From assembly GCA_043760535.1 (NCBI GenBank), contig JAYUOV010000001.1, positions 1,221 to 65,220 of the forward strand: a stretch of DNA of 64,000 nt. The letters are read 5' to 3'. The position numbers were made by a program, and so were the translations under genes. The notes beneath the pieces are model-generated. The model did no database searches and was not told the origin of the DNA. It saw only the letters and a list, made by a program, of their open reading frames with translations. This document shows, piece by piece, positions 5,808 through 25,702 of the stretch. How positions within the stretch are numbered: position 1 is the stretch's first letter; each line of letters starts with the position of its first letter. The DNA comes from Chitinophagaceae bacterium. Its GTDB lineage: Bacteria; Bacteroidota; Bacteroidia; Chitinophagales; Chitinophagaceae.

Positions 5808-6197
5808 ATGTTTCATATCCTTTTAGATGTACCCGGTTCACCATCGCAATACCTGCCTGTTGGCATACAGCTATTATTTGCATTGGGCTTGGTAGCTACT
5901 ATTATTGGCGTCTCTCATTTTTTAGGTCCTAAAAGAAATACAGCCGATAAGCTCGAAAACTTTGAAAGCGGTATAGAACAGATAGGCAATGCACGCCAGC
6001 CAATGGCAGTAAAATACTTTTTAGTAGCTATTTTGTTTGTACTGTTCGATGTGGAAGTGATATTCTTTTACCCGTACGCAGTAAACTTTAGAGAATTAGG
6101 CTGGAGTGGTTTTGGAGCCGTACTCATGTTTGTTGGTTTCTTTTTGGTAGGTTTTTATTACATTATAAAAAAAGGTGCCTTAAAATGGGAAGACTAG
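5808..6197 (+). CDS. nuoA: NADH-quinone oxidoreductase subunit A
   Basis: KLENFESGIEQIGNARQPMAVKYFLVAILFVLFDVEVIFFYPYA is the NuoA/ND3 signature. The start is set at the internal ATG 5808 because the track's upstream extension overlaps the terminator hairpin. Confidence 0.9.
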   Translation: MFHILLDVPGSPSQYLPVGIQLLFALGLVATIIGVSHFLGPKRNTADKLENFESGIEQIGNARQPMAVKYFLVAILFVLFDVEVIFFYPYAVNFRELGWSGFGAVLMFVGFFLVGFYYIIKKGALKWED

Positions 6198-6200
6198 AGC

Positions 6201-6370
6201 CATTTGCGATTTACGGTTTCGGATTTGCGATTTCTGTAAGTCGGCTAACATTTTGTTGAAAAGGGTGTTGTATTGTTGGTTTGAAATATTAGAGCATATA
6301 GTGTCGGTGTTCATTAGTGCTAATAGTGTCAAAAAAAATCGTAAATCGTAATTCATAAATCGTCAATTTT
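6201..6370. repeat. nuoA|nuoB spacer bracketed by inverted word arrays (GCGATTTACGG.. / ..AAATCGTAAATCG)
   Basis: 6201-6236 (CATTTGCGATTTACGGTTTCGGATTTGCGATTTCTG) and 6336-6370 (AAATCGTAAATCGTAATTCATAAATCGTCAATTTT) are imperfect reverse complements, about 22 of 27 positions pairable including G-U. Confidence 0.6.
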
Positions 6371-6949
6371 ATGTCTGATATATATACTGGCCGGCCTGTT
6401 CGGTTTAATAATAAAGTAAAAGAAGTAGAAATGCCAGAAGGCATTAATGGTGAAGGCTTTTTTGTAACTAAACTAAGCGAAGTAGTAGGTCTTGGCCGTA
6501 AAAACTCTCTTTGGCCATTACCATTTGCCACCAGCTGCTGCGGTATAGAATTTATGGCCACCATGGGCAGCCATTACGATTTAGCTCGTTTTGGCGCCGA
6601 ACGTGTAGGTTTTAGCCCCCGCCAATGCGATTTATTAATGGTAATGGGTACCATTAGCAAAAAAATGGGCCCTGTTTTACGCAAGGTATATTTACAAATG
6701 GCCGAGCCCCGCTGGGTACTTAGCGTAGGAGCCTGTGCCTGCAGCGGTGGTATTTTCGATACCTATTCTGTATTGCAAGGCATAGATCAGGTAATACCGG
6801 TAGATGTATATGTGCCAGGATGCCCACCACGGCCCGAGGCCATACTAGACGGCTTTATGAAAATACAGGATATGGTAGGGCAAGAGAGTGTACGCCGCCG
6901 GGGCGACGAAAAGTACAAAGCATTGTTGGGAGAATACGGCATACAGTAA
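6371..6949 (+). CDS. nuoB: NADH-quinone oxidoreductase subunit B
   Basis: SLWPLPFATSCCGIEFMA, GACACSGG and VPGCPPRPEA are the N2-cluster cysteine motifs of NuoB. Confidence 0.95.
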   Translation: MSDIYTGRPVRFNNKVKEVEMPEGINGEGFFVTKLSEVVGLGRKNSLWPLPFATSCCGIEFMATMGSHYDLARFGAERVGFSPRQCDLLMVMGTISKKMGPVLRKVYLQMAEPRWVLSVGACACSGGIFDTYSVLQGIDQVIPVDVYVPGCPPRPEAILDGFMKIQDMVGQESVRRRGDEKYKALLGEYGIQ

Positions 6950-6962
6950 TAACATAAGCTAC

Positions 6963-7631
6963 ATGTTTCAACTTACAATCGATCATATACGCATCAATGA
7001 ATTAAAGCATGCACCTAATTTACCGCAGGTGGTAGATGAATTGTTATATTTTTTAGAGGAGGAACGAAAGAAAAGAAACCTATTTTTAGAAACATTGAAT
7101 GACGATGTTAAAGCTGAGTTTATAGGAGGAGAAATAATTCTTAACTCACCAGTAAAAAGAAAGCATTATTTGGTTGTAAAGTGGTTATCTAAATTAATGG
7201 ATACTTATGCCTCTGTAAAAAAAATTGGAGAGGTAGCTACAGAAAAGGTATTAATCCATTTAACCAGAAACGATTTCGAACCAGATATTGTTTTTTTTGA
7301 TAACCATAAAGCAGCGCAATTTCATAACAATACCATGTTACACCCAGCCCCGGGATTGGTAGTTGAGGTGTTAAGCGATAGCACAAAACTACGGGACAGA
7401 GGCATTAAATTTGAAGATTATGCCTACCATCAAATAGCAGAGTATTGGATTATTGATGCAGATACGGAAATGATAGAGCAGTATTTTTTGAATGATAAAA
7501 GCCAATACGAATTATTTTTAAAAACGAATTCGGGTAAAATAATTTCAAAAGTGATTGGTGGTTTTGAAATAGATGTGAAGGCTATTTTTTCGGCAGAAGA
7601 AAATTTAAAAGCACTAAGAAATATATTATAG
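6963..7631 (+). CDS. Uma2-family (DUF820) PD-(D/E)xK putative endonuclease, copy 1
   Basis: AEFIGGEIILNSP, EPDIVFF, VVEVLSDST and AEYWIIDAD match the Uma2 pattern. The gene starts 13 bp after the nuoB stop and ends 2 bp before the nuoC start. The start is set at the internal ATG 6963 because the track ORF overlaps nuoB. Confidence 0.8.
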   Translation: MFQLTIDHIRINELKHAPNLPQVVDELLYFLEEERKKRNLFLETLNDDVKAEFIGGEIILNSPVKRKHYLVVKWLSKLMDTYASVKKIGEVATEKVLIHLTRNDFEPDIVFFDNHKAAQFHNNTMLHPAPGLVVEVLSDSTKLRDRGIKFEDYAYHQIAEYWIIDADTEMIEQYFLNDKSQYELFLKTNSGKIISKVIGGFEIDVKAIFSAEENLKALRNIL

Positions 7632-7633
7632 CA

Positions 7634-8152
7634 ATGTCTTTAACAAACGAAATAGTACAAACACGCCTTACAGAAAAGTTCGGAGAACAGCTTACAGGTT
7701 GGGAAGCACAATATGGTTTACTCAGTTTTAGGGCTACTACCGACCTGAATCTGAAAGTATTACAGTTTTTGTACGATGATGAGGAACTTAAATTCAATTT
7801 TTTAACAGACATCTGTGCTGTTCATTATCCTGACAGAAAAGGAGAGGAGCTGGCGGTAATTTATCATTTACACAATATGGCAGCAGGCATCAGGCTGCGG
7901 ATGAAAGTATTTGTGCCAATAGAAAAGCCAGATGTATTTACCGCTACCAAACTGTACGAAGCCGCCAATTTTATGGAACGGGAAACCTACGATTTCTATG
8001 GTATTAATTTCGTTGGCCATCCTAACCTGATACGGATTTTAAATGTGGATGAAATGGATTATTTTCCATTGAGAAAAGAATTTCCGCTGGAAGACCAAAC
8101 AAGGGTGGATAAAGATGATGAGATGTTTGGACGGGGTGGGAGTTATAATTAA
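7634..8152 (+). CDS. nuoC: NADH-quinone oxidoreductase subunit C
   Basis: AANFMERETYDFYGINFVGHPNLIRIL is the NuoC / 30-kDa subunit signature. Confidence 0.95.
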   Translation: MSLTNEIVQTRLTEKFGEQLTGWEAQYGLLSFRATTDLNLKVLQFLYDDEELKFNFLTDICAVHYPDRKGEELAVIYHLHNMAAGIRLRMKVFVPIEKPDVFTATKLYEAANFMERETYDFYGINFVGHPNLIRILNVDEMDYFPLRKEFPLEDQTRVDKDDEMFGRGGSYN

Positions 8153-8170
8153 TAATTAATTTTTTGAGGA

Positions 8171-8353
8171 ATGAAATACAAATCAATCGTTTTAACATCA
8201 GTATTATTTTTTTCGATTTTAATGGTAAATTTTACCGAGGGTTTTGCAGCAGATTTTTGTAGAGGCGTTTCTTTTATAATTGCTGCTTTTTTGTTTGCTG
8301 ATGCCATTAAAAATTTTATAAACAAAAATCGGAATGGTTTATCAAAAGTTTAA
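8171..8353 (+). CDS. 60-aa two-TM ORF, unknown function
   Basis: Hydrophobic ORF filling the space between nuoC and the second Uma2 gene. No other support. Confidence 0.3.
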   Translation: MKYKSIVLTSVLFFSILMVNFTEGFAADFCRGVSFIIAAFLFADAIKNFINKNRNGLSKV

Positions 8354-8359
8354 ATCAAA

Positions 8360-9019
8360 ATGAAAAGCATTTTAGAACCCATACTACATTCTCCACTGCT
8401 GCCAGATTATGTGGCACAGTTAACCAATTTTTTACAATTGGAGAATGAAAAAAGATTGGCTTTCTACGAATGGCTTGATGAAGACATTAGGGCAGAATTT
8501 ATTGAAGGGGAGGTAATTATACATTCTCCACCAAGGGATATTCATATTATGGTCCTTGACAATATGGGTGAGCAGGTTAAGGCATTTGTTGTTAAAAACG
8601 ATTTAGGAATAGTACGAAGGGAGCAAGCTTTAGTAAGATTGAAAAGGAGTGATGTAATGCCAGACTTGTTATTTTTTGGAAGTAAAATCGCTGTAAAAAT
8701 TATTTCTAACACCAAAATTTATCCAATCCCGGAGTTCGTAGTAGAAGTACTAAGCCCATCTACAGAAAAAAACGACCGGAAAAGGAAATTTCTAGAATAT
8801 GCCATCAATGGAGTAAAAGAATATTGGATTGTAGATGCAGATAAAAAAACAGTGGAGCAATATATTCTCATTGGCCAATCATATAGATTAAAAGGCGCTT
8901 TCGATACAGACCAAGCCATAGAATGCATAGTTTTAAAAGGATTGTATGTTGAAGTGTCATCCATTTTTAACGAAAAAGAAAGTCAGCAAGCCGTATTAAA
9001 AATACTAACTGCTTCATAA
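8360..9019 (+). CDS. Uma2-family (DUF820) putative endonuclease, copy 2
   Basis: AEFIEGEVIIHSP, MPDLLFF, VVEVLSPST and KEYWIVDAD. It aligns along its whole length with copy 1. Confidence 0.8.
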   Translation: MKSILEPILHSPLLPDYVAQLTNFLQLENEKRLAFYEWLDEDIRAEFIEGEVIIHSPPRDIHIMVLDNMGEQVKAFVVKNDLGIVRREQALVRLKRSDVMPDLLFFGSKIAVKIISNTKIYPIPEFVVEVLSPSTEKNDRKRKFLEYAINGVKEYWIVDADKKTVEQYILIGQSYRLKGAFDTDQAIECIVLKGLYVEVSSIFNEKESQQAVLKILTAS

Positions 9020-9065
9020 AATATTTACAAAAAAACTACAGGACTACCTGTGTTACCATATACAA

Positions 9066-10307
9066 ATGAGCGAAATAATAACCACCGAACCGCACCATGT
9101 ACGCTTGCCCGATGGTAGCATACAAAAGCTTACTACCACCATGAACCTGGGGCCTACGCACCCGGCTACTCATGGTGTGTTTCAGAATATTATAGAGCTG
9201 GATGGCGAAACCATTGTAAGTGCCGTAAGTACAGTAGGCTATATCCACCGGGCTTTTGAAAAATTGGCCGAGCGCCGTCCACTATACCAAATAACTACCA
9301 TAACAGACAGGCTTAACTATTGCAGCAGCCCCATTAACAATATGGGCTGGCATCTTACTTGCGAAAAGTTACTCAGCGTTTCTACTCCTAAACGGGTAGA
9401 TTACCTGCGGGTTATTATTATGGAGCTAGCCCGTATTTCCGATCATCTTATATGTAATTCTATCGTTGGTGTAGATACAGGTGCTTATACCGGTTTTCTC
9501 TACGTAATGCAATACCGGGAACTGATATACGAAATTTACGAGGAAGTTTGCGGCAGTCGCCTTACCACCAACATGGGTCGCATCGGTGGCTTCGAAAGAA
9601 ATTTTACCAATACGGCTTTTGAGAAATTAGAAAAATTTCTTAAAGAATATCCAAAGGTTTTAAAAGAATTTGAAAACCTCTTTGAGCGGAATCGCATATT
9701 TATGGATCGCTGCCAGGGCACCGGCGCCATTACTGCCGAAAGGGCACTCAACTATGGTTTTACCGGCCCTAACCTACGTGCAGCCGGTGTAGATTACGAT
9801 GTAAGAGTTAGCGATCCCTACAGCAGCTATCAGGATTTTGATTTTACCGTACCCGTAGGTACTACCGGCGACAACTACGACCGCTGGCTGGTTCGCAATC
9901 AGGAAATGTGGCAGAGCCTTAGTATTATAGAACAGGCATACAAAAAAGTACAAGCATTTAAAGGCACCGAAGCAGACATTTACCATGCCGATGTGCCAGA
10001 ATATTACCTGCCCATGAAGGCCGATGTTTACACCAAAATGGAAGCCCTCATTTACCATTTCAAAATCATCATGGGCGAAACCGAAATACCAGCTGGCGAA
10101 TTATACCAGGCGGTTGAAGGCGGTAATGGCGAATTGGGTTTTTACCTCATCAGCGATGGTGGCCGTACGCCATATCGTTTGCATTTCCGCAGGCCATGTT
10201 TTATATATTATCAGGCATACCCCGAACTTACAAAAGGCGCTATGATAAGCGATGCCATTGTAACTATGAGCAGTTTAAATTTGATAGCAGGGGAGCTGGA
10301 TGCTTAA
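9066..10307 (+). CDS. nuoD: NADH-quinone oxidoreductase subunit D
   Basis: MNLGPTHPATHGVF, HRAFEKLAE and the C-terminal MSSLNLIAGELDA match NuoD / 49-kDa subunit. Confidence 0.95.
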   Translation: MSEIITTEPHHVRLPDGSIQKLTTTMNLGPTHPATHGVFQNIIELDGETIVSAVSTVGYIHRAFEKLAERRPLYQITTITDRLNYCSSPINNMGWHLTCEKLLSVSTPKRVDYLRVIIMELARISDHLICNSIVGVDTGAYTGFLYVMQYRELIYEIYEEVCGSRLTTNMGRIGGFERNFTNTAFEKLEKFLKEYPKVLKEFENLFERNRIFMDRCQGTGAITAERALNYGFTGPNLRAAGVDYDVRVSDPYSSYQDFDFTVPVGTTGDNYDRWLVRNQEMWQSLSIIEQAYKKVQAFKGTEADIYHADVPEYYLPMKADVYTKMEALIYHFKIIMGETEIPAGELYQAVEGGNGELGFYLISDGGRTPYRLHFRRPCFIYYQAYPELTKGAMISDAIVTMSSLNLIAGELDA

Positions 10308-10542
10308 AAAAAATAAGATGGAAAATGAAATCAAGTATAGAAAAGGGGGCATGGCTATCGTTGGCAGGAAGGTGTCTTTTGCCGAAGCTGATGAAATAGA
10401 CAATGAGTATTGGAGAAATGCTTCTGTCGCAGAAAGGTTTCAAACCCTAATAGATTTAAATTATATGATGTTTGGAAAGAAGCTTGGCCGTATTGCAAAA
10501 GTTGTAAAAAGAAGACATATAAGCGATGAAGAAGCCGATTAG
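10300..10542 (+). CDS. small acidic protein, possible antitoxin-like partner of the next gene
   Basis: 80-aa ORF. Its ATG overlaps the nuoD stop (ATGCTTAA) and its 3' end overlaps the next ORF by 17 nt. SFAEADEIDNEYWRNASVAERFQTLIDL is a motif I associate with small partner proteins of nucleotidyltransferase-like genes. The start is uncertain (internal Mets). Confidence 0.4.
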   Translation: MLKKNKMENEIKYRKGGMAIVGRKVSFAEADEIDNEYWRNASVAERFQTLIDLNYMMFGKKLGRIAKVVKRRHISDEEAD

Positions 10543-10993
10543 TATTCCAAATGACTTCATTGAATTTATTCCTTTGTGCAATAAGCATCAATTAAAGTAC
10601 ATGGTAATAGGCGGTTTTGCGGTCAGCATCCATGGATACCCACGTTCTACAAAAGACATGGACATTTGTATTCAATTAAGCGATGAAAATGCCGAAAAGA
10701 TGTTATTCGTTCTCAAGGAGCTCGGATTCAGTTCATTAAATCTAACTAAAGCTGATTTTTTAGTACCCCATTATTTTACCCAATTGGGCTATGAACCTGT
10801 TAGGATAGACATTATGAACGATATTGATGGTGTAGAATTTGAAGTGGCGTGGCAAAATAAAAAGGTAGTAAAAATGAAAGGTGTGGATTTTAACTTTATA
10901 GGCTATAACGAATTACTAATACTGAAACAATTAGCAGGACGCCCACAAGATTTGGCTGACATATACAAACTGAAACAACGAAATAAAAAATAA
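10526..10993 (+). CDS. minimal nucleotidyltransferase-fold protein (MNT/AbiEii-like family, unassigned)
   Basis: GGFAVSIHGYPRSTKDMDICI fits the hG[GS]x9-13Dh[DE] nucleotidyltransferase motif. The protein is 155 aa and ends 2 bp before nuoE. Confidence 0.55.
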   Translation: MKKPISIPNDFIEFIPLCNKHQLKYMVIGGFAVSIHGYPRSTKDMDICIQLSDENAEKMLFVLKELGFSSLNLTKADFLVPHYFTQLGYEPVRIDIMNDIDGVEFEVAWQNKKVVKMKGVDFNFIGYNELLILKQLAGRPQDLADIYKLKQRNKK

Positions 10994-10995
10994 GA

Positions 10996-11499
10996 ATGGC
11001 AATTCAATTTTCAGAACAACAACTTGCCGAGGTGCAAGAACTTATTTCCCACTATCCAAAAGGGAAACAGAAAAGTGCATTGATACCTGTGTTGCACATG
11101 GCGCAAGACGAGTTTGGCGGATGGCTAAGTAGCGACACCATGGATTATGTGGCCAGCCTGCTGCAACTAGAACCGATAGAAGTGTACGAAGTGGCCACCT
11201 TTTATAGCATGTACAATCTTACACCCGTAGGCAAACATGTGTTCGAAGTATGCCAAACTGGCCCTTGTATGCTCAATGGAAGCGACAATATTATCGACTA
11301 CATTAAACAGAAACTCGATATAAAAGTAGGTGGTACAAGTGCGGATGGCTTATTTACCCTAAAGACTGTGGAGTGCCTTGGTGCTTGTGGCTATGCACCC
11401 ATGATGCAGATGGGCAAAACTTACAGGGAACATTTAACCAAAGAAAAAGTAGATGCCATAATAGAGGAGTGTAGAAATACGGCTGCAAGAAATAATTAG
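10996..11499 (+). CDS. nuoE: NADH-quinone oxidoreductase subunit E
   Basis: VCQTGPCMLNGS and ECLGACGYAPMMQ are the 2Fe-2S cysteine motifs of NuoE. Confidence 0.95.
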   Translation: MAIQFSEQQLAEVQELISHYPKGKQKSALIPVLHMAQDEFGGWLSSDTMDYVASLLQLEPIEVYEVATFYSMYNLTPVGKHVFEVCQTGPCMLNGSDNIIDYIKQKLDIKVGGTSADGLFTLKTVECLGACGYAPMMQMGKTYREHLTKEKVDAIIEECRNTAARNN

Positions 11500-11506: not shown

Positions 11507-11600
11507 CCCCGGCGAAAACCAGCCGGGGTCGGGCTTTCCGTTCCAATTTTTTTTGGCCATTCTTGTACTTCTTTTAGGGTTGGTGGCCGGCCAAAAAAAG
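11507..11600 (+). terminator. two hairpins immediately after nuoE (possible internal attenuator or terminator)
   Basis: CCCCGGC-GAAAACCA-GCCGGGG at 11507-11528 is followed some bases later by a T8 run. TTTTTTTGGCC ... GGCCAAAAAAA at 11548-11600 forms a second hairpin. Confidence 0.35.
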
Positions 11601-11732
11601 ATTTCCACTGCAATCCCTTACGCAGCAAACACACACCGCTAAATAAATTAGAAGCTTTAATTTTTAACACAAGCAAACACACTATCAATCACCAAATTTC
11701 ATACCCAAAGCCTTCAGCCTTGGGAAAACAAC

Positions 11733-12167
11733 ATGAAAACACTATTCTTCTTAGTTACGCTGTTTACATGTTTTGCAGCAGTAGGCCAAAGTAAAGATGA
11801 AACAACCATCATTTTCAGAACCTACCTGCTATGCCGCACTGTTTTTGGCAGCAAAGACAGCCTCACACTCGAAAACCTGTTTGCACAAACATCCACCTAC
11901 GGTCATTCTAACGGAAATGTACAAAACAGGGCACAAGCAATTAAGAGCATTTGTAGCAATAAAAGCAATTATACCGATACTTCCATCAGCAAAATGACGG
12001 TACATATAACCGGAAAAACGGCAATCTCAAGGCATTTGTTTAAGTGCAACGAAAACAAACCCAACGGAATCGTTTCTAAACTAGATTTTGCAATGACTTT
12101 GGTATGGGTAAAAGAAAAGAACGTTTGGTGCTTATTTGGTAGGCAGGCTTCCTTTATCGCTTTTTAA
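11733..12167 (+). CDS. secreted NTF2-fold protein (SnoaL/DUF4440-like)
   Basis: Signal peptide, then the pattern LFAQTSTYGHSNGNVQNRAQAIK ... ISKMTVHITGKTAI ... MTLVWVKEKNVW, typical of DUF4440-like proteins. Confidence 0.5.
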   Translation: MKTLFFLVTLFTCFAAVGQSKDETTIIFRTYLLCRTVFGSKDSLTLENLFAQTSTYGHSNGNVQNRAQAIKSICSNKSNYTDTSISKMTVHITGKTAISRHLFKCNENKPNGIVSKLDFAMTLVWVKEKNVWCLFGRQASFIAF

Positions 12168-12172
12168 TAAAA

Positions 12173-12525
12173 ATGGGAATAACAACAGCAATATTGAGGG
12201 TAAAGGAGCATCACAAATCTAGAAAAGTTGCTGATACAGGTTTTCTGATGTATAGTGGGGCGGTTTATAGCCTGGTGCCGGGCAAAGTGTTAGATCGGTT
12301 GGAAATAGAAACGTACCGAAAACTCCCTTTTCTTTGGCACACAGTACGAGTAACAATCGGCAGGTAAGTTTAGCATATTTTGAATTTGAGGGAGAGGGCA
12401 CCCCGGCTTCGGTTATTTATGGCTAAGAAGAAGATACACCATTACTTGGTGCAACCACATTAGGATATCAATTGGGTTGGTGTTGTAACTTTTTAGAAAA
12501 ACGCTGCGCCCTATGCAAAAGTTAA
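12173..12525 (+). pseudogene. decayed retropepsin-like (clan AA, AF_0612-type) aspartic protease
   Basis: Frame 2 gives VADTGF..AVYSLVPGKVLDRLEIE. The continuation is in another frame (AYFEFEGEGTPASVIYG-TAA-EEDTPLLGATTLGYQLG). That makes at least one frameshift plus an in-frame TAA at 12424-12426. Confidence 0.5.
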
Positions 12526-12555: not shown

Positions 12556-12963
12556 ATGAAACTAACACCTTACCTCCATTTTGCTGGTAATGCAGCCGAA
12601 GCTTTAGAGTTTTACAAAGCAGCATTTGGCGGTGAAATAACCATGAGAAGCACCTACGGCGATAGCCCAAAGCATACTGAGCCAGAATGGAAAGATAAGC
12701 TGATGCATGCCCGTTTGGTGTTTGGAAATAATATGATGATGCTATCCGATTCGTTTAAAGGACAAGAACCCCTAAAAATGGGAAACGTACAATTAAGCCT
12801 GGAAATAAGCGACGCAGCAAGAATAGAAACCATATTTAGTGCCATAGCCGAAGGTGGTACTGTAACCATGCCGCTTCAAGATCAGTTTTGGGGTGCAAAA
12901 TTTGGTACGTTGATAGATAAATTTGGCATTAGCTGGATGTTTAACCATGAATTAAAAAAGTAA
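12556..12963 (+). CDS. VOC-family (glyoxalase/PhnB-like) protein
   Basis: MKLTPYLHFAGNAAEALEFYKAAFG ... LMHARL ... PLQDQFWGAKFGTLIDKFGISWMFN is the PhnB/YjdN-like pattern. Confidence 0.8.
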   Translation: MKLTPYLHFAGNAAEALEFYKAAFGGEITMRSTYGDSPKHTEPEWKDKLMHARLVFGNNMMMLSDSFKGQEPLKMGNVQLSLEISDAARIETIFSAIAEGGTVTMPLQDQFWGAKFGTLIDKFGISWMFNHELKK

Positions 12964-13366
12964 ATGAATTAAATAATATCACATTAAAAATCAGCAAAGG
13001 CAATAACTCGGTATAAGTTATTGCGAGTATTTCAGAATGGTGTTACTTGTATTATTAACCTAACACTATAGAAAGCAACAAGTGTTATTGAATTTTTGTA
13101 TAACAATAAATATTTTAAAGTATTCAAAATAACATACTCCAAAAAGTTAGAATGGAATGAATAGATAGATATAGGTTCTTTTGCTTTTTATTTGTAACAC
13201 TTATTTGCTATGTGGAGCTTAATTGTTTACAAAAAATGGTTAAAGAAAAAAAGGAAAGAAAAATGTTTTTAAGTCTTTGATAATTGAAAATTCGGTATTA
13301 ACAATAGTTAGCAAAAGAGAGTAAAAAAAAGTAAAAACTACCGCCTAAAAACGGCTAATAATTAAT

Positions 13367-18505: not shown

Positions 18506-18892
18506 ATGAGTATTATTAAAGCACCTCTTTTGTTTAGAGGTACAAAAAACGACAAGTATTTGTACAGATTGTTTGATAACGGCGCTAACTTATCGGTAAT
18601 TCGTAAAGACCTTGCAGAACAAATAGACTTACTAATACCGCTGCGGGAACCCAATCGTATGGCAACTGCTAATGTGAACGACTTTATGGAAGTTCACTAA
18701 AAATTTGTTTGTGATTTTTTTTTGAACGATGTACGGTTGTCTGATGAGTTTTTAGTGCTGGATGATGTAAGTGAAGAAGTAATAATAGGTGCAGCTACTA
18801 TGCAAAAATGGAGAATGAAATTAGATTTTGAACACAACACCGTTTCTGTGGATAATAAAGTGGCTATACTACAGATAGTTCATTTAAAATAA
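18506..18892 (+). pseudogene. retropepsin-like aspartic protease with a single in-frame TAA (18698-18700)
   Basis: LFDNGANLSVIRKDLAEQI (D-[ST/N]-G-A site) lies before the stop. The same frame continues KFVCDFFLNDVRLSDEFLVLDDVSEEVIIGAATMQKWRMKLDFEHNTV after it. The gene lies between nuoH and nuoI. Confidence 0.6.
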
Positions 18893-18979
18893 CCCATTAA
18901 TAAAATTGGGCTGTATAGCCTATAAAAATATTTTTGCAAACATTCTTACAAAAGCAAAAAGCAGAACGCAAACCAACAA

Positions 18980-19567
18980 ATGGAAGCATTAACAAACCGT
19001 GGCAAACAAGTAAGCCGCAAACCGATGAATATTTGGGAGAAGATGTATCTTCCTTCCATCTTCAAAGGCATGGCTATTACTTTTAGCCATCTTTTTAAGA
19101 AAGTACCAACTATTAGTTATCCAGAACAAACAAGGCCATTTAGCCCGGTTTTTCGTGGATTGCATGTACTTAACAGAGATGAGGAAGGCCGTGAAAGATG
19201 CACAGCTTGTGGCCTTTGTGCTGTGGCCTGCCCTGCCGAAGCCATTACTATGGAAGGTGCCGAAAGATTACCCGGAGAAGAAAATTTATTTAGGGAAGAA
19301 AAATATGCTGCTAAATATGAAATCAATATGTTGCGGTGTATATTTTGTGGCCTGTGCGAAGAAGCCTGCCCTAAAGATGCCATTTATCTAAGCGAAACTT
19401 TTACACCAGCTAATTTTACCCGTAAAAGTTTTATTTATGGTAAAAACGATTTACTGATACCCGATCCTAATACAAACAAAGTGGCCTACGATAAAGCAGC
19501 GGCAGGAAGGGTAAGAGTAGCTGTAAGCGGCAATTCATCAGCGGCAGATTGTGATAATGGCCATTAG
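18980..19567 (+). CDS. nuoI: NADH-quinone oxidoreductase subunit I
   Basis: Two 4Fe-4S motifs: CTACGLCAVACP and CIFCGLCEEACP. Confidence 0.95.
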   Translation: MEALTNRGKQVSRKPMNIWEKMYLPSIFKGMAITFSHLFKKVPTISYPEQTRPFSPVFRGLHVLNRDEEGRERCTACGLCAVACPAEAITMEGAERLPGEENLFREEKYAAKYEINMLRCIFCGLCEEACPKDAIYLSETFTPANFTRKSFIYGKNDLLIPDPNTNKVAYDKAAAGRVRVAVSGNSSAADCDNGH

Positions 19568-19677
19568 TTATTGGTTAATACGTCGATAGGGCAATAAAAA
19601 TAGAAAAAGCATATTGACCATTGATTTATTGACACCACGAATCGATTAGCGCCCAGTTAAATTCTGAACAAATTATA

Positions 19678-20175
19678 ATGAACATTACACAAATACTTTT
19701 CTGGTTTTTAAGTGCATTGGCCGTGGGAAGTGCCTTAATGGTAGTTACTCGCAAAAATCCTGTGTACAGTGTGCTATTTCTCATTGTTACTTTTTTCGCC
19801 ATAAGTGGCCATTACATTTTAATGAACGCCCAGTTTTTGGCCATTGTAAATATCATTGTGTACGCAGGTGCTATTATGGTACTGTTTCTTTTTGTGCTGA
19901 TGCTAATGAACCTTAACAGCGAAACCGAGCCTCAGAAAAATAAATACATGATATTAAGCGGGGCTGTGGCCGGCGGTTGTTTAATGCTGATTATTATTGC
20001 AGCACTAAACACAGATATTAAAGATACGGCTTTGGATATGGGGCAAGGCAACATAGGCTTGATAAAACAGTTGGGTAAAACCCTTTATAGGGATTATGTA
20101 GTACCATTCGAAATAAGTAGTGTTTTGTTTTTAAGTGCCATGGTAGGGGCGGTGGTTATAGGAAAGAAGGATTAA
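19678..20175 (+). CDS. nuoJ: NADH-quinone oxidoreductase subunit J
   Basis: Five TM helices. VTRKNPVYSVLFLIVTFFAISGHYILMNAQFLAIVNIIVYAGAIMVLFLFV matches NuoJ/ND6. Confidence 0.9.
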   Translation: MNITQILFWFLSALAVGSALMVVTRKNPVYSVLFLIVTFFAISGHYILMNAQFLAIVNIIVYAGAIMVLFLFVLMLMNLNSETEPQKNKYMILSGAVAGGCLMLIIIAALNTDIKDTALDMGQGNIGLIKQLGKTLYRDYVVPFEISSVLFLSAMVGAVVIGKKD

Positions 20176-20307
20176 AAATTAATTTGTAAATGTGGTTAAC
20201 ATGCAAATAACCACTTTGAGTATAAAATAGTTAACCGAATTAATAAATTATGGGAAGGAATGGCAGGTTTTGTACATCTGCCAATTTCCCATTCGCTAAT
20301 TAACATC

Positions 20308-20643
20308 ATGCCAATCAATTATTACATATACCTGTCCGTCATTTTGTTTTGCATAGGTGTGGCCGGTGTGCTTACACGCCGCAATGCCATTATTGTGTTT
20401 ATGTGTATAGAGTTAATGCTCAATGCTGTAAACCTGCTGCTGGTATCGTTTAGTAAAATGCATTATGCTAAAGCCATACTTACCGATCCTAATACAACAG
20501 CCGGTACCGATGCGCAGCTATTTGTTTTCTTTATAATGGTAGTGGCGGCAGCCGAAGTAAGTGTGGGCCTTGCCATAATTGTATTAATGTACCGCAAGGT
20601 GCACAGTGTAGATATTAATTTTTTAAACAGGCTAAAAAATTAA
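20308..20643 (+). CDS. nuoK: NADH-quinone oxidoreductase subunit K
   Basis: [30 protein letters not shown] ... [13 protein letters not shown] matches NuoK/ND4L. The start is set at the internal ATG 20308. Confidence 0.9.
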
Positions 20644-20731
20644 TGGATAATGGGTTAATAGATAATAGATATTCCACGGAACTTGAACCTTGTTACTTGA
20701 ACCTTGACTTTTTAATAACTGATACTTTTAG

Positions 20732-22687
20732 ATGATTAACGTACTACAATATGCATGGTTGGTGCCCATCTTTCCATTAATTGGGTTTTTACTCAATGGT
20801 CTTTTGCGTAATAAGCTTTCTAAACAAATGGTAGGCATTATCGGCAGCGGTTCGGTATTGTTATCGTTTATCGTAAGCCTGTACCTTTTTAATAATGTAC
20901 ATGCTGCCGAGCCTTATGTGGCACATTACTTCGATTTTATTGCTGTTGGTAAAATATCCATTCCTTTTGCTTTTCAGATTGATCAGCTATCTGCCATATT
21001 TCTACTAATAATTACTGGCGTAGGTACACTCATCCATATTTACTCCACGGCTTACATGCATGAGGAGGAGCCCAAACATTTTGCCCGTTACTTTGCCTAC
21101 CTCAACTTGTTTATATTTTCCATGTTGCTGCTCGTAATGGGTGCCAACTATATCATTATGTTCATTGGTTGGGAAGGTGTAGGCCTTTGCTCTTACCTGC
21201 TCATCGGCTTCTGGTTTAAGCGTACCGATTATAACAATGCCGCCAAAAAGGCTTTCATCATGAACCGCATAGGAGATTTAGGTGTGTTGCTGGCCGTTTT
21301 TTGGATGATGCAAAAATTTGGTACCGTAAACTTTACCGATCTTTTTAAAGCCATAGCCGACCAACATGCTGCTGGTACTTTAAACTTTAACGACCCGGCT
21401 TTGGTAGGCATCACATTACTACTTTTTGTAGGTGCCACCGGTAAAAGTGCACAGATACCTTTATACACCTGGCTACCCGATGCCATGGCAGGCCCAACAC
21501 CTGTTTCGGCTTTGATACATGCAGCTACCATGGTTACAGCCGGTATTTATATGATTGCCCGTAGTAACATTATGTTTACCCTTGCCACAACTACCACCCA
21601 AATCATTGCTATTGTAGGTTTGGCTACAGCAGTGTTGGCAGCAACCATTGCCTTAAAACAAAACGACATTAAAAAAGTACTGGCCTACTCTACAGTTAGC
21701 CAGCTTGGTTTTATGTTCCTAGCCTTGGGTGTAGGTTCTTACACTGGTGCCGTTTTTCATGTAATCACACATGCCTTTTTCAAAGCCCTTATGTTCTTAG
21801 GTGCAGGTTCGGTAATACACGGTATGCACCACGAGCAGGATATGCTGAATTATGGCGGCCTAAAAAAATACATGCCTGTTACACATGCCACTTTCTTAAT
21901 CGGTTGTTTGGCCATCTCTGGGGTACCATTGTTCAGTGGTTTCTTTTCTAAAGATGAAATACTAATGGGTGCATTTGCAAAAAGTCCCGTACTATATGGT
22001 ATAGGTTTAGCAGCTGCGCTGATGACCGCCTTTTATATGTTCCGCCTTTACGCCATGACTTTCCAGGGCAAGTTTAGGGGTGATGACAACCACCACCCAC
22101 ATGAAAGCCCCAAAGCCATGACGATACCTTTGGTAGTGTTGGCTATTCTTGCTGCTGTTGCCGGTTTCATAGGTATTCCTGCATTGTTTAAACCCGAAGC
22201 TCATATTTTAGAACATTACTTAGCACCCGTTTTTGAAGGGTCGGCTAAATTGGTAGAACCGCATCATATTGATCATAACACCGAGTGGGGATTATTGATT
22301 GGTTCCACAATTGTTATCCTTGGCGTTATAGCCTTTGCTTGGAACAAGTTTAGCAAATACCAAAAGACCGGTACAGAAGAAACAGGCATTGGTATGGTTC
22401 TGGAAAACAAATGGTATGTGGATGAAATTTACAATGCCATAATCGTAAAACCTCTTCTTGGATTGGGTGTATTTTTTAATAACGTGGTAGAAAAAAGGGG
22501 CATTGATAAACTGGTAAATGGCGTAGGCCGTGGGGTACAGTATGCTAGCCGTCAGTTCCGCTATCTGCAAAGCGGCGTTATTGGTAACTATATTTTAATA
22601 ATGGTAGCAGCTATTATTGTGCTGTTTTTAATAGGCTTTGGCTTTACCCCCGATTTTGGCAAAATAAAAAACCTCTTTGGTAAATAA
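20732..22687 (+). CDS. nuoL: NADH-quinone oxidoreductase subunit L
   Basis: FIGWEGVGLCSYLLIGFW, GKSAQIPLYTWLPDAMAGPTPVSALIHAATMVTAG, and a long C-terminal amphipathic arm. Confidence 0.95.
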   Translation: MINVLQYAWLVPIFPLIGFLLNGLLRNKLSKQMVGIIGSGSVLLSFIVSLYLFNNVHAAEPYVAHYFDFIAVGKISIPFAFQIDQLSAIFLLIITGVGTLIHIYSTAYMHEEEPKHFARYFAYLNLFIFSMLLLVMGANYIIMFIGWEGVGLCSYLLIGFWFKRTDYNNAAKKAFIMNRIGDLGVLLAVFWMMQKFGTVNFTDLFKAIADQHAAGTLNFNDPALVGITLLLFVGATGKSAQIPLYTWLPDAMAGPTPVSALIHAATMVTAGIYMIARSNIMFTLATTTTQIIAIVGLATAVLAATIALKQNDIKKVLAYSTVSQLGFMFLALGVGSYTGAVFHVITHAFFKALMFLGAGSVIHGMHHEQDMLNYGGLKKYMPVTHATFLIGCLAISGVPLFSGFFSKDEILMGAFAKSPVLYGIGLAAALMTAFYMFRLYAMTFQGKFRGDDNHHPHESPKAMTIPLVVLAILAAVAGFIGIPALFKPEAHILEHYLAPVFEGSAKLVEPHHIDHNTEWGLLIGSTIVILGVIAFAWNKFSKYQKTGTEETGIGMVLENKWYVDEIYNAIIVKPLLGLGVFFNNVVEKRGIDKLVNGVGRGVQYASRQFRYLQSGVIGNYILIMVAAIIVLFLIGFGFTPDFGKIKNLFGK

Positions 22688-22693
22688 TATTAC

Positions 22694-24112
22694 ATGATCC
22701 TTGTTTCGCTCATATTAATCCCTCTTGTTTTTGGCATTGCCTCCTTCTTTTTTAAAGGAAAGGATGCCGCTAAAACATTGGCACTTATTGCCTCTATTGT
22801 AACCCTAGCAGTTAGCTTTTATTCCATTAGTTTACCGGCAAGTTCGCTTACATATAACCATAGCTGGCTTACAGTGCTCAACAGTAATGTTGCTTTGGGT
22901 GTAGATGGAATGGCCAAAATATTAGTATTGCTTACTGCTATCTGCTACCCAATTATTTTAATAGCTACCGCTAACAACGAGTATAAAAATACCAATCAGT
23001 TTTACGGATTAATGCTACTAACACAGGCTGGTTTGATGGGGGTTTTTCTTTCTACCGATTGTTTGTTGTTCTACTTTTTTTGGGAATTAGCTCTTGTGCC
23101 TGCTTATTTTCTTTGCAGCCAATGGGGCGGCGAAAAACGCATTGCTGTTAGTTTCAAGTTCTTCATATACACCTTCGTGGGTTCTTTGATAATGCTTATC
23201 GGCATCATTTATCTATATTCCAAAACACCCGACCACTCTTTTGCATGGAGCAGTTTTACCAAAGTGGTGTTAACCGAAAACGAACAAAAGTATCTATTCT
23301 GGTCCTTCTTTATCGCCTTCGCTATAAAGATGCCCATCTTCCCATTCCATACGTGGCAGCCAGATGCTTATGAGCAGGCGCCAACTGCTACTACTATGGT
23401 TTTAAGTGGTATTATGGTAAAAATGGGATTGTTTGCTGTGGCTCGTTGGTTATTGCCCATCTTTCCACAAATGGTTATTAAAATGGCCGATACAGTGATG
23501 ATTCTCTCCATCATTGGCATGATTTACGCCTCGTTGATAGCCATGAAACAGGACAGTATAAAACGGATGATTGCCTATAGTTCAATAGCCCACATCGGGT
23601 TAATGTGTGCTGCTTTATTTGCCCATAACGCAGAAGCCACCCAAGGCGTGTACGTACAATTATTTAACCACGGCGTAAATGTGATTGGCCTCTGGATAGT
23701 GGCCAACGCAATAGAGCAACAAACTGGCACCACCAAAATGAGTGAACTTGGCGGACTAGCACATAAGGCTCCAGTATTAACCATTTTGTTGGTGATTATG
23801 GCATTGGCCAATATAGCCTTGCCATTAACCAATGCATTTGTGGGTGAATATCTAATGTTCAATGGCTTATTTGCTTACAAACCTTTGTTTGCAGCAGTAG
23901 CTGGAGTAAGTATTATTTTGGCAGGTGTGTACACCCTCAACATGATTCAGAAAGTATTTTTAGGCGAAGCATCCGCATTGCTTAAAGTAAAAGAAATACC
24001 CAAAAATACCATAGTAGCATTGAGCATTATAGTTGTAATGATTTTTGCCATGGGCGTTTACCCAAAACCAATGTTTCTTTTAGCGGAACAAGTAATAGGA
24101 TGGGTTAAATAA
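22694..24112 (+). CDS. nuoM: NADH-quinone oxidoreductase subunit M
   Basis: FFWELALVPAYFL, KMPIFPFHTWQPDAYEQAPTATTMVLSGIMVKMG and AYSSIAHIG. Confidence 0.95.
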   Translation: MILVSLILIPLVFGIASFFFKGKDAAKTLALIASIVTLAVSFYSISLPASSLTYNHSWLTVLNSNVALGVDGMAKILVLLTAICYPIILIATANNEYKNTNQFYGLMLLTQAGLMGVFLSTDCLLFYFFWELALVPAYFLCSQWGGEKRIAVSFKFFIYTFVGSLIMLIGIIYLYSKTPDHSFAWSSFTKVVLTENEQKYLFWSFFIAFAIKMPIFPFHTWQPDAYEQAPTATTMVLSGIMVKMGLFAVARWLLPIFPQMVIKMADTVMILSIIGMIYASLIAMKQDSIKRMIAYSSIAHIGLMCAALFAHNAEATQGVYVQLFNHGVNVIGLWIVANAIEQQTGTTKMSELGGLAHKAPVLTILLVIMALANIALPLTNAFVGEYLMFNGLFAYKPLFAAVAGVSIILAGVYTLNMIQKVFLGEASALLKVKEIPKNTIVALSIIVVMIFAMGVYPKPMFLLAEQVIGWVK

Positions 24113-24118
24113 GGTGTA

Positions 24119-24289
24119 GAAGTTCACCAAGTTCCACTGTTCAGATGTTTTGCTACAAATTGTTTATTTTTTCGAAAACAGTGAAAAGTAAAATAGTTGA
24201 ACACATAGACTTGTGAAAAAGAGAACAGGTGAACAGGTGAACAGGTGAACAGGTAAACGGCTGAACTAAAGAACGATGAACTATAAATT
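24119..24289. repeat. nuoM|nuoN spacer: period-8 word array (GTGAACAG x3-6) with an inverted partner arm
   Basis: 24222-24285 reads GAGAACAGGTGAACAGGTGAACAGGTGAACAGGTAAACGGCTGAACTAAAGAACGATGAACT. 24119-24148 reads GAAGTTCACCAAGTTCCACTGTTCAGATGT and contains the complementary words GTTCACC and CTGTTCA. Confidence 0.7.
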
Positions 24290-25702
24290 ATGAACCTGAT
24301 AATATTTGCAGCAATAGCTGGCGTAGTAATGATGATTGGCGGGCTTTTCGTTAAAGACAAACGAAGGGTTAGCGATATTGCATTGGCATGTATGCTAATG
24401 TTGCTTGCCGTTAATACCTACGAATTAAGAACTGATACATCCATTTTCCATATAAACCTCAAGGGGATGCTGGCTTTTAATTCTTTTGGGTTACTTATTA
24501 ATGAGGTGCTGCTGTTTTGCGGAGGTGTTTACTTTTTTCTGCAATCAAGAGATATTGAAAAAGTAGGCAAAAATGTTCCTGATTATTATGCACTGATATT
24601 TTTCATTTTCTGCGGTATCGGTATTGCTACATCTTTTCAGTCGTTGCTCATGTTGTTCCTTGGTATCGAAATTATTTCTATTCCGCTCTACATACTTACG
24701 GCAAGCGATAAGGAAAATATGAAGAGCAATGAAGCTGGCCTGAAGTATTTTATGATGGGTGCTTTTAGTACCGGCCTAATGCTAATGGGTATTGCCCTTG
24801 TTTATGGCGCTACAGGTTCATTTTTTATTGCAGATATTATTAAAGGAAAGCAAGCATTGGGCGATGCCCCGGCAGTTACTTCCTTGGTAGATACTTACCG
24901 CCTTATTGGAGGCTTAATTTTATTATTGATAAGTATGTCTTTTAAAGTCTCCGCCGCACCTTTCCATTTTTGGACACCCGATGTGTACGATGGTGCACCA
25001 ACCCCTTTCACGGCTTTTATGGCCACTATTGTAAAAGTGGCTGCATTGGTTGCATTTATTAAATTATTCGAAGGCACACACGATAAACTGATTGGTAAGT
25101 ATCAAATGCTTGTAGCAGTTATTATTACCGCAACCTTATTAATTGGTAATATCACCGCAGTGTTTCAGCAAAGTGTAAAAAGGATGCTGGCTTATAGTTC
25201 TATAGCACAAGCAGGGTTTATGATGTTTGCATTATTTGCCTTTAACCAGGAAGCCAAAGAAGCTATTATCCTCTACGCTGCCGCTTATTGTCTGGCTACG
25301 ATTGGCATTTTTGCCATCTTAAACCGCATGGACGATTACACTTTTGATGGCTATAATGGCCTTGCCAAAAAAGAACCCTTGCTGGCCTTGCTCAATGCAG
25401 TTTTCTTTTTGTCGCTGGCCGGCATCCCTTTAACAGCGGGCTTCTTTGCCAAGTTCTATATTGTATCTGCGGCCATGCAAAATAGTGGCAGTTATATTTG
25501 GTTATTTATCATTGCCATGCTTTGTGCAGCGGTAAGTGTGTACTATTATTTCCGGGTAATACAGGCCATGTACTTTAAAAATGGCGAAGGCCAAAAGATA
25601 GAAGCCACACCCATGTTTAAGTATGTGCTGATAGCTGTGGCAGTGCTAATCATTATTCTGGGTATTCAGCCGGGATGGCTGTTGCAGCATTTGTATTTTT
25701 AA
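24290..25702 (+). CDS. nuoN: NADH-quinone oxidoreductase subunit N
   Basis: KVSAAPFHFWTPDVYDGAPTPFTAFMATIVKVAA and LAYSSIAQAGFM match NuoN/ND2. Confidence 0.95.
   Translation: MNLIIFAAIAGVVMMIGGLFVKDKRRVSDIALACMLMLLAVNTYELRTDTSIFHINLKGMLAFNSFGLLINEVLLFCGGVYFFLQSRDIEKVGKNVPDYYALIFFIFCGIGIATSFQSLLMLFLGIEIISIPLYILTASDKENMKSNEAGLKYFMMGAFSTGLMLMGIALVYGATGSFFIADIIKGKQALGDAPAVTSLVDTYRLIGGLILLLISMSFKVSAAPFHFWTPDVYDGAPTPFTAFMATIVKVAALVAFIKLFEGTHDKLIGKYQMLVAVIITATLLIGNITAVFQQSVKRMLAYSSIAQAGFMMFALFAFNQEAKEAIILYAAAYCLATIGIFAILNRMDDYTFDGYNGLAKKEPLLALLNAVFFLSLAGIPLTAGFFAKFYIVSAAMQNSGSYIWLFIIAMLCAAVSVYYYFRVIQAMYFKNGEGQKIEATPMFKYVLIAVAVLIIILGIQPGWLLQHLYF

Follow-up and report, generated by a model that had tools for sequence, protein, structure and literature searches.

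Small passenger genes in the junctions of a Chitinophagaceae complex I operon: evidence for long residence and turnover

Why should the genes of a respiratory complex be interleaved with small genes that resemble nucleases, toxin-antitoxin (TA) modules and defence genes, and how long have they been there? The question is raised by the complex I (nuo) operon of a Chitinophagaceae bacterium, which lies at 5808-25702 in a window of 64,000 nucleotides (nt), the whole stretch of DNA analysed here (assembly GCA_043760535.1, contig JAYUOV010000001.1). The genes nuoA to nuoN are all present, in canonical order and on the + strand; nuoA-J were identified directly by Pfam, and nuoK-N were assigned by the size and position of their open reading frames (ORFs), together with tblastn matches to related operons. 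Pfam and ORF analysis place extra + strand ORFs in 6 of the 13 nuo junctions (B/C, C/D, D/E, E/F, F/G and H/I, named after the flanking nuo genes), and this inventory agrees with an original prediction made from the sequence of this locus. An assembly artefact was ruled out, as an independent Logan assembly of the same organism shows the identical arrangement.

The Chitinophagaceae nuo operon has probably long served as a site of accretion for small passengers. No promoters belonging to these genes were found, and they would be expressed by read-through, entrenched by translational coupling and turned over by loss, decay and lateral replacement. Two classes of passengers can be told apart by composition and predicted family. 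The first appears to consist of host-like small proteins at E/F (NTF2/DUF4440, VOC and retropepsin-like) that co-diverge with the operon, and the second of low-GC, fast-evolving modules of predicted nuclease, TA or defence type (Uma2, a small ORF with a nucleotidyltransferase [NTase], and an ATPase with a partner of 184 amino acids [aa]), in which each lineage seems tied to its own junction.

The 14 Nuo proteins were mapped onto 160 related Chitinophagaceae-type nuo loci, and every junction was measured and counted as occupied when it was at least 250 nt long. Occupancy is highest at E/F (53% of loci) and F/G (33%), followed by H/I (13%), D/E (12%), C/D (10%), G/H (8%) and B/C (3%), and is 0% at I/J and M/N. 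The load per locus, scored on the 94 loci with at least 10 scorable junctions, is zero in 35 and one in 24, and the window alone has six, the maximum. Junction occupancy is a family-wide trait, and the window is its extreme case. Occupied junctions are also present in the cultured Niabella aurantiaca DSM 17617, Agriterribacter humi YJ03 and Ferruginibacter sp. SUN106. Searches with NuoF and NuoD put the window in the Chitinophagaceae; the closest species representative has a NuoF 88% identical to that of the window, and two metagenome contigs are closer (L082, NuoD 97%; L083, NuoD 96%).

When the junction ORFs were clustered, the same families kept returning at the same positions. At E/F, DUF4440/NTF2-like genes are the commonest residents (50 loci), beside VOC (18), retropepsin-like (9) and NlpE-like (9) genes. 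The D/E junction holds the small ORF and NTase in about 8 to 10 loci, and F/G holds the ATPase in 11 loci, the ATPase with its 184-aa partner in 10 to 11 and a PDDEXK_3 gene in 13. A four-helix-bundle protein of the 23S rRNA intervening sequence (IVS) family, S23p, is found at F/G and K/L (12 loci), and Uma2 genes reside at B/C and C/D. Other cargo among the loci includes MNT-HEPN, HepT, HicB/HicA, YoeB, DUF4160+DUF2442, FkbM methyltransferase, AHSA1, DNA_alkylation and RDD, and a single junction carries unrelated alternative cargo in different lineages. Family profiles run against about 0.8 Mb of operon-flanking DNA gave, outside nuo operons, no convincing match except one opposite-strand FkbM-like ORF (L079); the few other matches beyond the scored nuo spans fall in operons truncated by contig ends.

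Orientation is equally regular. All 20 recurrent families (present in at least two loci) lie on the operon strand (p of about 1e-6, assuming independent families), and of 181 occupied gaps, 156 have their longest ORF on the + strand. The expectation that every insert follows the operon strand holds for the ORFs of the window, and fails for a Flavo-1 RNA motif, which lies on the opposite strand. In one metagenome locus (L093), an insertion of about 6.4 kb between nuoD and nuoE includes two ORFs on the opposite strand (767 and 310 aa), a rare instance of an apparently split operon.

The passengers are neither freshly landed nor fixed ancient genes, and they come and go junction by junction. The inserts are 30 to 70% identical between loci whose Nuo proteins are 72 to 97% identical, and every homologue context that was looked up proved to be the same junction, down to 34 to 49% identity, with the exception of two distant Uma2 homologues. 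The four main cassettes have orthologues in the same junction of other genomes at 34 to 68% identity, which indicates inheritance or exchange in situ and not a recent landing from elsewhere. No two cassettes from different genomes or junctions proved nearly identical. These observations contradict the image of the operon as a landing strip with which the original prediction had summed up the locus. That prediction had also reasoned that the same inserts at the same junctions across a family would speak for ancient fixed genes instead of cargo. This pattern is largely what was found, but occupancy ranges only from 3 to 53%, the nearest relatives differ and the NTase is discordant with NuoD.

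The nearest relatives illustrate how patchy the presence is. In L082, the B/C, C/D and D/E junctions are empty (spacers of about 50 to 110 nt), E/F holds only the NTF2-like gene, and a PDDEXK_3 gene replaces the ATPase pair at F/G. L083 is without Uma2-1 (the B/C Uma2 gene) and a 60-aa ORF found at C/D in the window, and carries orthologues of Uma2-2 (the C/D Uma2 gene) and of the D/E pair. Alignment of the window to the empty junctions of these two contigs breaks exactly at the ORF boundaries, and the inserts start 10 to 23 nt past the upstream stop codon. Empty-junction alignment and a repeat finder revealed no target-site duplications or terminal repeats around the window cassettes, and flank-duplex energies gave no sign of complementary flanks (z of -1.9 to +1.2). 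An insertion mechanism that targets gene junctions, offered earlier as an alternative to hitch-hiking, is thus unsupported for the window cassettes; elements bounded by inverted repeats do occur at F/G and K/L in relatives, as detailed below.

A neighbor-joining tree of NuoE, NuoF and NuoG was poorly resolved (the loci are all about 80% identical to the window), and Mantel and clustering statistics were used instead. Divergence of the insert is correlated with that of the flanking Nuo proteins for the NTF2-like (r = 0.36, p = 0.001), VOC (r = 0.41, p = 0.003), retropepsin-like and NlpE-like families (r of 0.36 to 0.69 and p of at most 0.005 across the four). The Mantel test was not significant for PDDEXK_3, the S23p family, the ATPase, the 184-aa partner and the NTase, and the carriers of these families are not phylogenetically clustered. 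Decay is recorded in the window itself by two retropepsin pseudogenes, at E/F and H/I, and one DUF2442 relic.

The two Uma2 genes match PF05685 with 96 and 104 bits (cut-off of 27) over profile positions 4 to 171 of 172, and also match the PADLOC candidate system PDC-S03. Residues P107-D108, E135, S138, D145, K149 and E160-Y161-W162 are invariant across 12 Uma2 proteins from nuo and non-nuo contexts, which is compatible with an intact predicted nuclease active site. As first described, Uma2-1 starts 13 nt after the nuoB stop codon and ends 2 nt before the nuoC start; Uma2-2 has kept the ancestral 46-nt spacer before nuoD. The two are only 38% identical, which rules out a recent duplication. 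The B/C junction is likewise the site of the Uma2-1 homologues with 67, 63 and 49% identity, and two of those genomes have a further Uma2 gene at C/D; orthologues of Uma2-2 occupy C/D in L083 (68%), L167 and L170. A small tree resolved a B/C clade and a C/D clade, but not the deeper nodes. At 48 to 51% identity, homologues are found elsewhere, one as a solo gene in Haliscomenobacter and a second at the tail of a 2-oxoacid:ferredoxin oxidoreductase operon, beside transposases.

In the literature, Uma2 is a likely solo toxin whose genes occur as cassettes of paralogues (PMC2701414). In agreement with this remark, the B/C junction of L132 (8045-9373) holds two tandem Uma2 paralogues that are 46% identical. 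The 60-aa ORF that precedes Uma2-2, which may not be a real gene, is present in this genome only, being absent from L083 despite the adjacent Uma2 gene there, and matches no known family. The empty B/C spacer of L083 contains at 8439-8493 a hairpin with a T run behind it (AAAGCCTTGACAAAAGGCTT CATTTTTT), which looks like a terminator or attenuator within the operon.

At D/E, the likeliest start of the small ORF is 10318, which is also the start in L083. An overlap with nuoD had been proposed from the letters 'ATGCTTAA' at 10300, but the ATG at this position falls in the last codons of nuoD and is present also in L082, where D/E is empty, so that the overlap is probably an artefact of ORF calling. 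The small ORF overlaps the NTase gene by 17 nt, and the latter ends 2 nt before nuoE, a spacing that had been read correctly. Homologues of the NTase at 64 to 68% identity (L174, L178 and L179) all lie between nuoD and nuoE, with a 14-nt overlap with an upstream ORF of 63 to 68 aa. Two adjacent, overlapping small genes are the arrangement of type II TA modules. The pair does not correspond to a recognised toxin and antitoxin such as MNT-HEPN, as the NTase matches DUF2204/DUF6036 only; the small ORF has no match to HEPN or any other family, and PADLOC and NCBIfam returned nothing for either gene.

The NTase sequences form two or more deeply separated types (about 40% identity between types and 60 to 74% within), whose distribution conflicts with NuoD (L083, L030 and L088 were compared with the window, L174, L178, L179, L152 and L074). 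The window and L083 are 96% identical in NuoD and 38% in NTase, whereas the window and L174 are 70% identical in NuoD and 68% in NTase. This conflict suggests in-place lateral replacement or a very old polymorphism.

At F/G, the ATPase is of the ABC-type AAA_15/AAA_21 kind seen in OLD, Gabija, PARIS and AbiL-type pairs. Its best PADLOC match is AbiLi (1.2e-21), followed by ATPase-Toprim, AriA and GajA, and its NCBIfam matches are all far below their cut-offs. It resembles AbiLi, AriA, GajA and OLD-type ATPases, and may or may not belong to any of those systems. The 184-aa ORF overlaps the ATPase gene by 14 nt and nuoG by 8 nt, the latter overlap having been noted before. Its homologues at 60, 47 and 34% identity lie between an ATPase gene and nuoG in all three contexts checked.

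The 184-aa partner had been called TOPRIM-like. Among its homologues (P0001-P0066 and P0307-P0453), residues E15, D19, H35, D61, D63, Q96, E102 and W104 are invariant, and these include a Glu after the first strand and a DxD after a later strand (E15, D61xD63). No match was found in Pfam, PADLOC, NCBIfam or a PDB-sequence profile search, and Pfam coverage is nil even for distant members of the family. The AlphaFold model is confident (pLDDT of 91, pTM of 0.87), and Foldseek found no fold match for it in PDB or BFVD. The name TOPRIM-like is a motif-level guess that neither a sequence family nor a fold match bears out. An exhaustive profile search retrieved 1069 representative clusters at E values of at most 1e-3, overturning the view of a tiny family (66 clusters) that a word-indexed search had given. 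The 184-aa partner thus brings to light a family without annotation, with more than 1000 representative clusters and a confidently predicted but unmatched fold.

The residents of E/F and H/I in the window include two retropepsin copies that are pseudogenes or relics, and neither combines an above-cut-off profile match with the catalytic D-T/S-G motif. The decayed E/F copy recognised earlier is indeed frameshifted and truncated; it covers profile positions 6 to 90 of 129, split over two frames, and intact homologues occupy E/F in 9 loci. The H/I copy contains the one in-frame stop that had been reported, but its identity as a retropepsin is less secure, since Asp_protease_2 is matched with 23.5 bits against a cut-off of 24.3 and DNG stands where DTG or DSG is expected. 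In the E/F DNA previously taken as non-coding, the AT-rich spacer before nuoF contains the DUF2442-like relic, and the antisense Flavo-1 RNA lies between nuoE and the NTF2-like gene, with 60 bits against a gathering score of 42. It is the sole copy in the window, and nhmmer and Rfam searches did not find it in 14 related nuo loci. The NTF2 orthologue of L082 has, as read by eye, a signal-peptide-like N terminus.

Composition separates the two classes. The Uma2, NTase, ATPase, 184-aa, 60-aa, small ORF and H/I retropepsin-like genes have GC contents of 0.27 to 0.38, and the nuo genes together with 18 other large genes average 0.41 to 0.42 (Mann-Whitney, p = 7e-6); the NTF2-like gene, the VOC gene and the E/F retropepsin remnant are host-like. 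The comparison of GC content that had been recommended for this locus therefore singles out the selfish-type inserts. The ratio pN/pS of the cassettes is 0.23 to 0.48, and dN/dS is about 0.08 to 0.14 where measurable, showing that purifying selection maintains the cassette proteins.

A terminator scan found no intrinsic + strand terminators at the insert boundaries. In the + strand intergenic DNA of the operon, the Bacteroidetes -7 element TAnnTTTG occurs only before nuoA and before nuoI; a scan for sigma-70 promoters was uninformative for Bacteroidota, yielding fewer matches than shuffled sequences. Several cassettes end 0 to 4 nt from the next nuo start codon or overlap it. The spacing from the 184-aa ORF to nuoG is at most 5 nt in 8 of 10 loci, mostly an overlap of 8 nt (-8), and 8 of 9 loci have the NTase -4 to +4 nt from nuoE; Uma2 lies 0 to 2 nt from nuoC, and HepT 0 to 1 nt from the next nuo start. 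Among 1313 empty spacers, only 3% are this short (at most 5 nt). This stop-to-start geometry is specific to each family and kept across genomes. These closely spaced cassettes have replaced the native spacer, and the original translation-initiation region of the nuo gene that follows has gone with it.

These signals can be combined into a mechanism for accretion. Passengers would be transcribed by read-through from the nuoA promoter, and selection would purge antisense or polar insertions. In cases where a cassette has taken the place of the original spacer, with its stop codon next to or inside the start codon of the following nuo gene, that gene's translation would become coupled to the passenger. 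Only precise deletion would then be tolerated and the passenger would be entrenched, with NTase-nuoE, 184-aa-nuoG and Uma2-1-nuoC as the candidate pairs. Turnover by loss is seen in the empty junctions of the nearest relatives, and turnover by decay in the pseudogenes and the relic. At a given junction, one allele or family would be replaced laterally by another, probably through homologous recombination in the highly conserved nuo genes on either side. The earlier proposal of hitch-hiking on the transcription of the operon, which it presumed to be essential and constitutively transcribed, is in this way supported in part and indirectly, by the common orientation of the recurrent families, the lack of flanking + strand terminators, the confinement of TAnnTTTG to nuoA and nuoI, and the tight nuo starts.

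Several points weigh against this explanation. Read-through and translational coupling are both inferred from sequence; the promoter scan employed one consensus only, and the TAnnTTTG before nuoI hints at internal promoters. Non-nuo Uma2 proteins interleave with those of nuo junctions at 45 to 50% identity. The ends of NuoD and NuoE beside the discordant NTase carry no mosaic, co-conversion or elevated-similarity signal, which leaves recombination through the flanks unproven. The contrast between nuo junctions and flanking DNA is biased upward, as its profiles were built from nuo-resident sequences, and the comparison took in nuo operons alone, so that nuo may be special or typical among long operons. 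Even the comparison with the nearest relatives shows saturated synonymous sites (pS of 0.59 to 0.80); gains and losses can therefore not be dated, and the "nearest" relatives are themselves old. All comparisons are between genomes, the sample including no within-species polymorphism, and for the selfish-type families the Mantel tests have n of 6 to 11 and are possibly underpowered or saturated.

A bolder version of accretion, to which we give a minor share of belief, treats the passengers as a hitherto unrecognised, "operon-addicted" class that lives in nuo junctions only, moves between species into the same junction and captures the translation initiation of the downstream gene, which would amount to addiction without a toxin. 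Movement between species could, on the same minority footing, rely on repair of the homing type, or on recombination within the conserved nuo genes to either side. It is similarly doubtful, but conceivable, that the class would also take in the IVS-like inverted-repeat elements of relatives.

These elements are PDDEXK_3 and S23p-family ORFs flanked by inverted arrays of tandem heptamers. They were found at F/G in L004, L013, L017, L020, L037, L045, L055, L064, L069, L002, L042, L080, L101 and L136, and at K/L in L057 and L079. The arms of the PDDEXK_3 elements read ...CGCAAAG NCGCAAAG... before the ORF and ...CTTTGCGN CTTTGCG... after it, and those of the S23p family (AAAGTCA)n and (TGACTTT)n. 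The arms vary between loci yet match within each locus (covariation) and can form a long stem, with a flank-to-flank duplex energy down to -77 kcal/mol and median z values against shuffled sequences of -4.6 for PDDEXK_3 (n = 10) and -5.1 for the S23p family (n = 9). Some "empty" F/G spacers consist of arm pairs without an ORF, or of a single arm (L024, L027 and L031, of 110 to 115 nt, and L038, L007 and L009), and look like derivatives or footprints of these elements. The IVSs of 23S rRNA have terminal inverted repeats, heptamer repeats and an S23p ORF, and are excised by RNase III (PMC4990558). The elements of the relatives are similar to the Coxiella IVS (PMC4990558) in that S23p or PDDEXK_3 ORFs are bracketed by inverted heptamer arrays, and differ from rRNA IVSs in that they sit in an mRNA operon. 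IVS-type elements thus occupy mRNA operons too, outside rRNA. The window cassettes are without such flanks, and none has terminal inverted repeats able to form a long stem (z of -1.9 to +1.2).

The elements of the relatives lend some credit to an explanation that is nonetheless unlikely, in which the inserts are mobile, junction-targeting selfish elements. The nucleases (Uma2 in the window and PDDEXK_3 in relatives) would act as free-standing homing endonucleases that are copied by repair and recolonise junctions, and, equally unlikely, would cleave the unoccupied nuo junction or a conserved stretch of nuo sequence beside it. The known counterparts are the T4 seg and mob genes, free-standing homing endonuclease genes that lie between conserved phage genes and perform intronless homing. 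As with seg and mob, nuclease-fold ORFs of the window are wedged between highly conserved genes, co-oriented, with minimal spacers and a patchy distribution that extends to the nearest relatives. Homing would also account for alternative cargo at the same junction across lineages, for ORF-less derivatives of the inverted-repeat elements, and for an NTase that is discordant with NuoD yet always at D/E. Moreover, at 45 to 50% identity the Uma2 proteins of nuo junctions do not resemble one another more than they resemble Uma2 from outside nuo operons, which is compatible with repeated capture.

Homing fits less well in other respects. Unlike seg and mob, the window genes belong to the chromosome of a cell; neither a cleavage site nor recent spread was seen, and much of the cargo is non-nuclease (NTF2, VOC and NTase). 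Around the window cassettes, terminal repeats, target duplications and complementary flanks are all absent, and no co-conversion tract was found, the D/E NTase being the place tested, and not the Uma2 flanks. The inserts are far more diverged than their hosts, which fits long residence better than frequent invasion, and near-identical copies across genomes or junctions were not seen. No insert is much closer than the host genes, and a few retropepsin, S23p-family and PDDEXK_3 pairs are at about the host level.

It is decidedly improbable that the inserts serve complex I as accessory proteins, assembly factors or regulators and share its operon in order to be co-regulated. The precedent would be the supernumerary subunits and urf genes of alphaproteobacteria. 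In alphaproteobacterial nuo and nqo operons, such URFs are concentrated around nuoE, nuoF and nuoG. Xu and colleagues are said to have described URF1-6 in the nqo operon of Paracoccus denitrificans in 1993. The nuo operon of Rhodobacter capsulatus carries the urf gene urf7 (PMC9036352), and the claim that nuo genes are contiguous in well-studied operons needs qualification for this reason. The likeness is that unrelated, co-oriented ORFs lie between complex I genes of one operon. The positions are conserved across many species, purifying selection acts on the proteins, the stop-start spacing suggests translational coupling, and the NTF2, VOC, NlpE-like and retropepsin-like families co-diverge with the flanking Nuo proteins, all of which would be expected of accessory factors.

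However, the maximal occupancy of 53% and the 35 of 94 operons that carry nothing show that no insert is required for complex I. The cargo is a miscellany of TA, defence and selfish types (Uma2, HepT/MNT, HicAB, YoeB, DUF4160/DUF2442 and an OLD/AbiL-like ATPase), unrelated alternatives share one junction, several copies are pseudogenes, and the signal-peptide-like N terminus of the L082 NTF2 protein is at odds with the cytoplasmic NuoE and NuoF. In contrast to the alphaproteobacterial URFs, the cargo here is mainly nuclease-, TA- or defence-like and its occupancy varies between related species; each junction has its own lineages, with alternative cargo elsewhere, and pseudogenes record turnover.

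The strict landing strip, with unrelated mobile cassettes that landed recently and independently in this genome, is very improbable and largely refuted: the low GC of the selfish-type cassettes, the highest load among the loci and the restriction of the 60-aa ORF and the Flavo-1 RNA to this genome speak for it, but the four main cassettes have orthologues at the same junctions (34 to 68%) and no mobility signatures were found.

Accretion in the nuo operon can be set beside three other known arrangements. Integron arrays, in particular chromosomal superintegrons, are made of promoter-less, co-oriented, packed small ORFs, many of them TA-like, behind one upstream promoter. The apparently promoter-less, co-oriented and tightly packed small ORFs of the window, many of which are TA-like, are similar, but they are interleaved with core respiratory genes instead of being stacked, and each position appears to have its own heritable lineage. 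A repeat finder gave no attC-like inverted repeats flanking the window cassettes, and the spacers of 0 to 23 nt are too short for attC; no integrase was present among the ORFs scanned with Pfam, an integrase-specific search not having been run. At integration hotspots, one interval between core genes repeatedly holds different accessory or defence genes in related genomes. The nuo intervals likewise hold varying accessory and defence-like genes in related genomes, but as single junctions within an operon, with one or two small genes and no recognisable promoter motif, and not as islands with genes for regulation and mobility.

The third arrangement is that of the hox operons, in which HoxE, HoxF and HoxU are homologous to NuoE, NuoF and NuoG. 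In cyanobacterial hoxEFUYH operons, a few unrelated ORFs are interspersed, and a Uma2 gene lies beside hoxW in the Lyngbya region (PMC2674450). The nuo operon is like these (PMC2674450) in having unrelated ORFs among its structural genes, and unlike them in phylum and enzyme, and in junction-specific lineages and a coupling geometry not reported there. The searchable literature yielded no description of the present pattern, including for Bacteroidota, and only loosely related precedents. Extra ORFs within nuo operons are known, as are hotspots flanked by core genes; new are the junction-specific TA-like and defence-like lineages, the conserved coupling geometry and the turnover across a whole bacterial family.

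If long-standing accretion is the right explanation, selfish or accessory genes without promoters or mobility functions can persist for very long in the junctions of conserved operons, with their stop codons fused to the next start. Operon junctions would then be worth searching for defence and TA genes, besides islands, and the contiguity of complex I operons should not be assumed in the annotation and expression of Bacteroidota. The cultured carriers make the proposed mechanism of retention, shelter from deletion combined with translational entrenchment, testable.

The features of the operon and its surroundings are collected in Table 1. The bidirectional hairpin upstream of nuoA probably marks the 5' limit of the nuo transcription unit, and the second TAnnTTTG motif is a possible internal promoter for nuoI-N.

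Table 1. Positions of nuo genes, inserted ORFs and sequence signals in the window
Feature	Coordinates	Strand	Remarks
Terminator-like hairpin, bidirectional	5695..5726	both	Stem 12-13 bp, T runs on each strand; ends upstream TPR gene
Candidate operon promoter -7 element TATTTTTG	5778..5785	+	Fits TAnnTTTG, 30 nt upstream of nuoA
nuoA	5808..6197	+	PF00507
nuoB	6371..6949	+	PF01058
Uma2-1, B/C	6963..7631	+	PF05685; GC 0.32; PD-(D/E)XK nuclease-fold
nuoC	7634..8152	+	PF00329
60-aa ORF, C/D	8171..8353	+	Two hydrophobic stretches; GC 0.27
Uma2-2, C/D	8360..9019	+	PF05685
nuoD	9066..10307	+	PF00346
Small ORF, D/E	10318..10542	+	74 aa (80 aa with start at 10300)
DUF2204/DUF6036 NTase, D/E	10526..10993	+	GC 0.35
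nuoE	10996..11499	+	PF01257
Flavo-1 RNA motif, spacer after nuoE	11523..11631	-	RF01705
DUF4440/NTF2-like, E/F	11733..12167	+	Pfam; GC 0.39, host-like
Retropepsin-like pseudogene, E/F	12143..12423	+	Frameshifted, truncated
VOC / YjdN-PhnB-like, E/F	12556..12963	+	Pfam/NCBIfam profile searches
AT-rich spacer before nuoF	12964..13366	+	GC 0.25; DUF2442-like relic at 13072-13161
nuoF	13367..14719	+	Pfam
AAA_15/AAA_21 ATPase, F/G	14743..15768	+	GC 0.35
184-aa partner of ATPase, F/G	15755..16309	+	Unannotated family
nuoG, short form, 366 aa	16302..17402	+	Pfam
nuoH	17430..18485	+	Pfam
Retropepsin-like pseudogene, H/I	18506..18892	+	In-frame stop 18698-18700
Second TAnnTTTG motif (TATTTTTG)	18929..18936	+	51 nt upstream of nuoI, just past the H/I retropepsin-like pseudogene
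nuoI, J, K, L, M, N	18980..25702	+	Junctions unoccupied, 6-177 nt

Elsewhere in the window, at the start of the S10 operon, a gap of 361 nt (62103-62463), with no + strand ORF of at least 30 aa and no Rfam match, separates rpsJ (61791-62102) from rplC (62464-63081).

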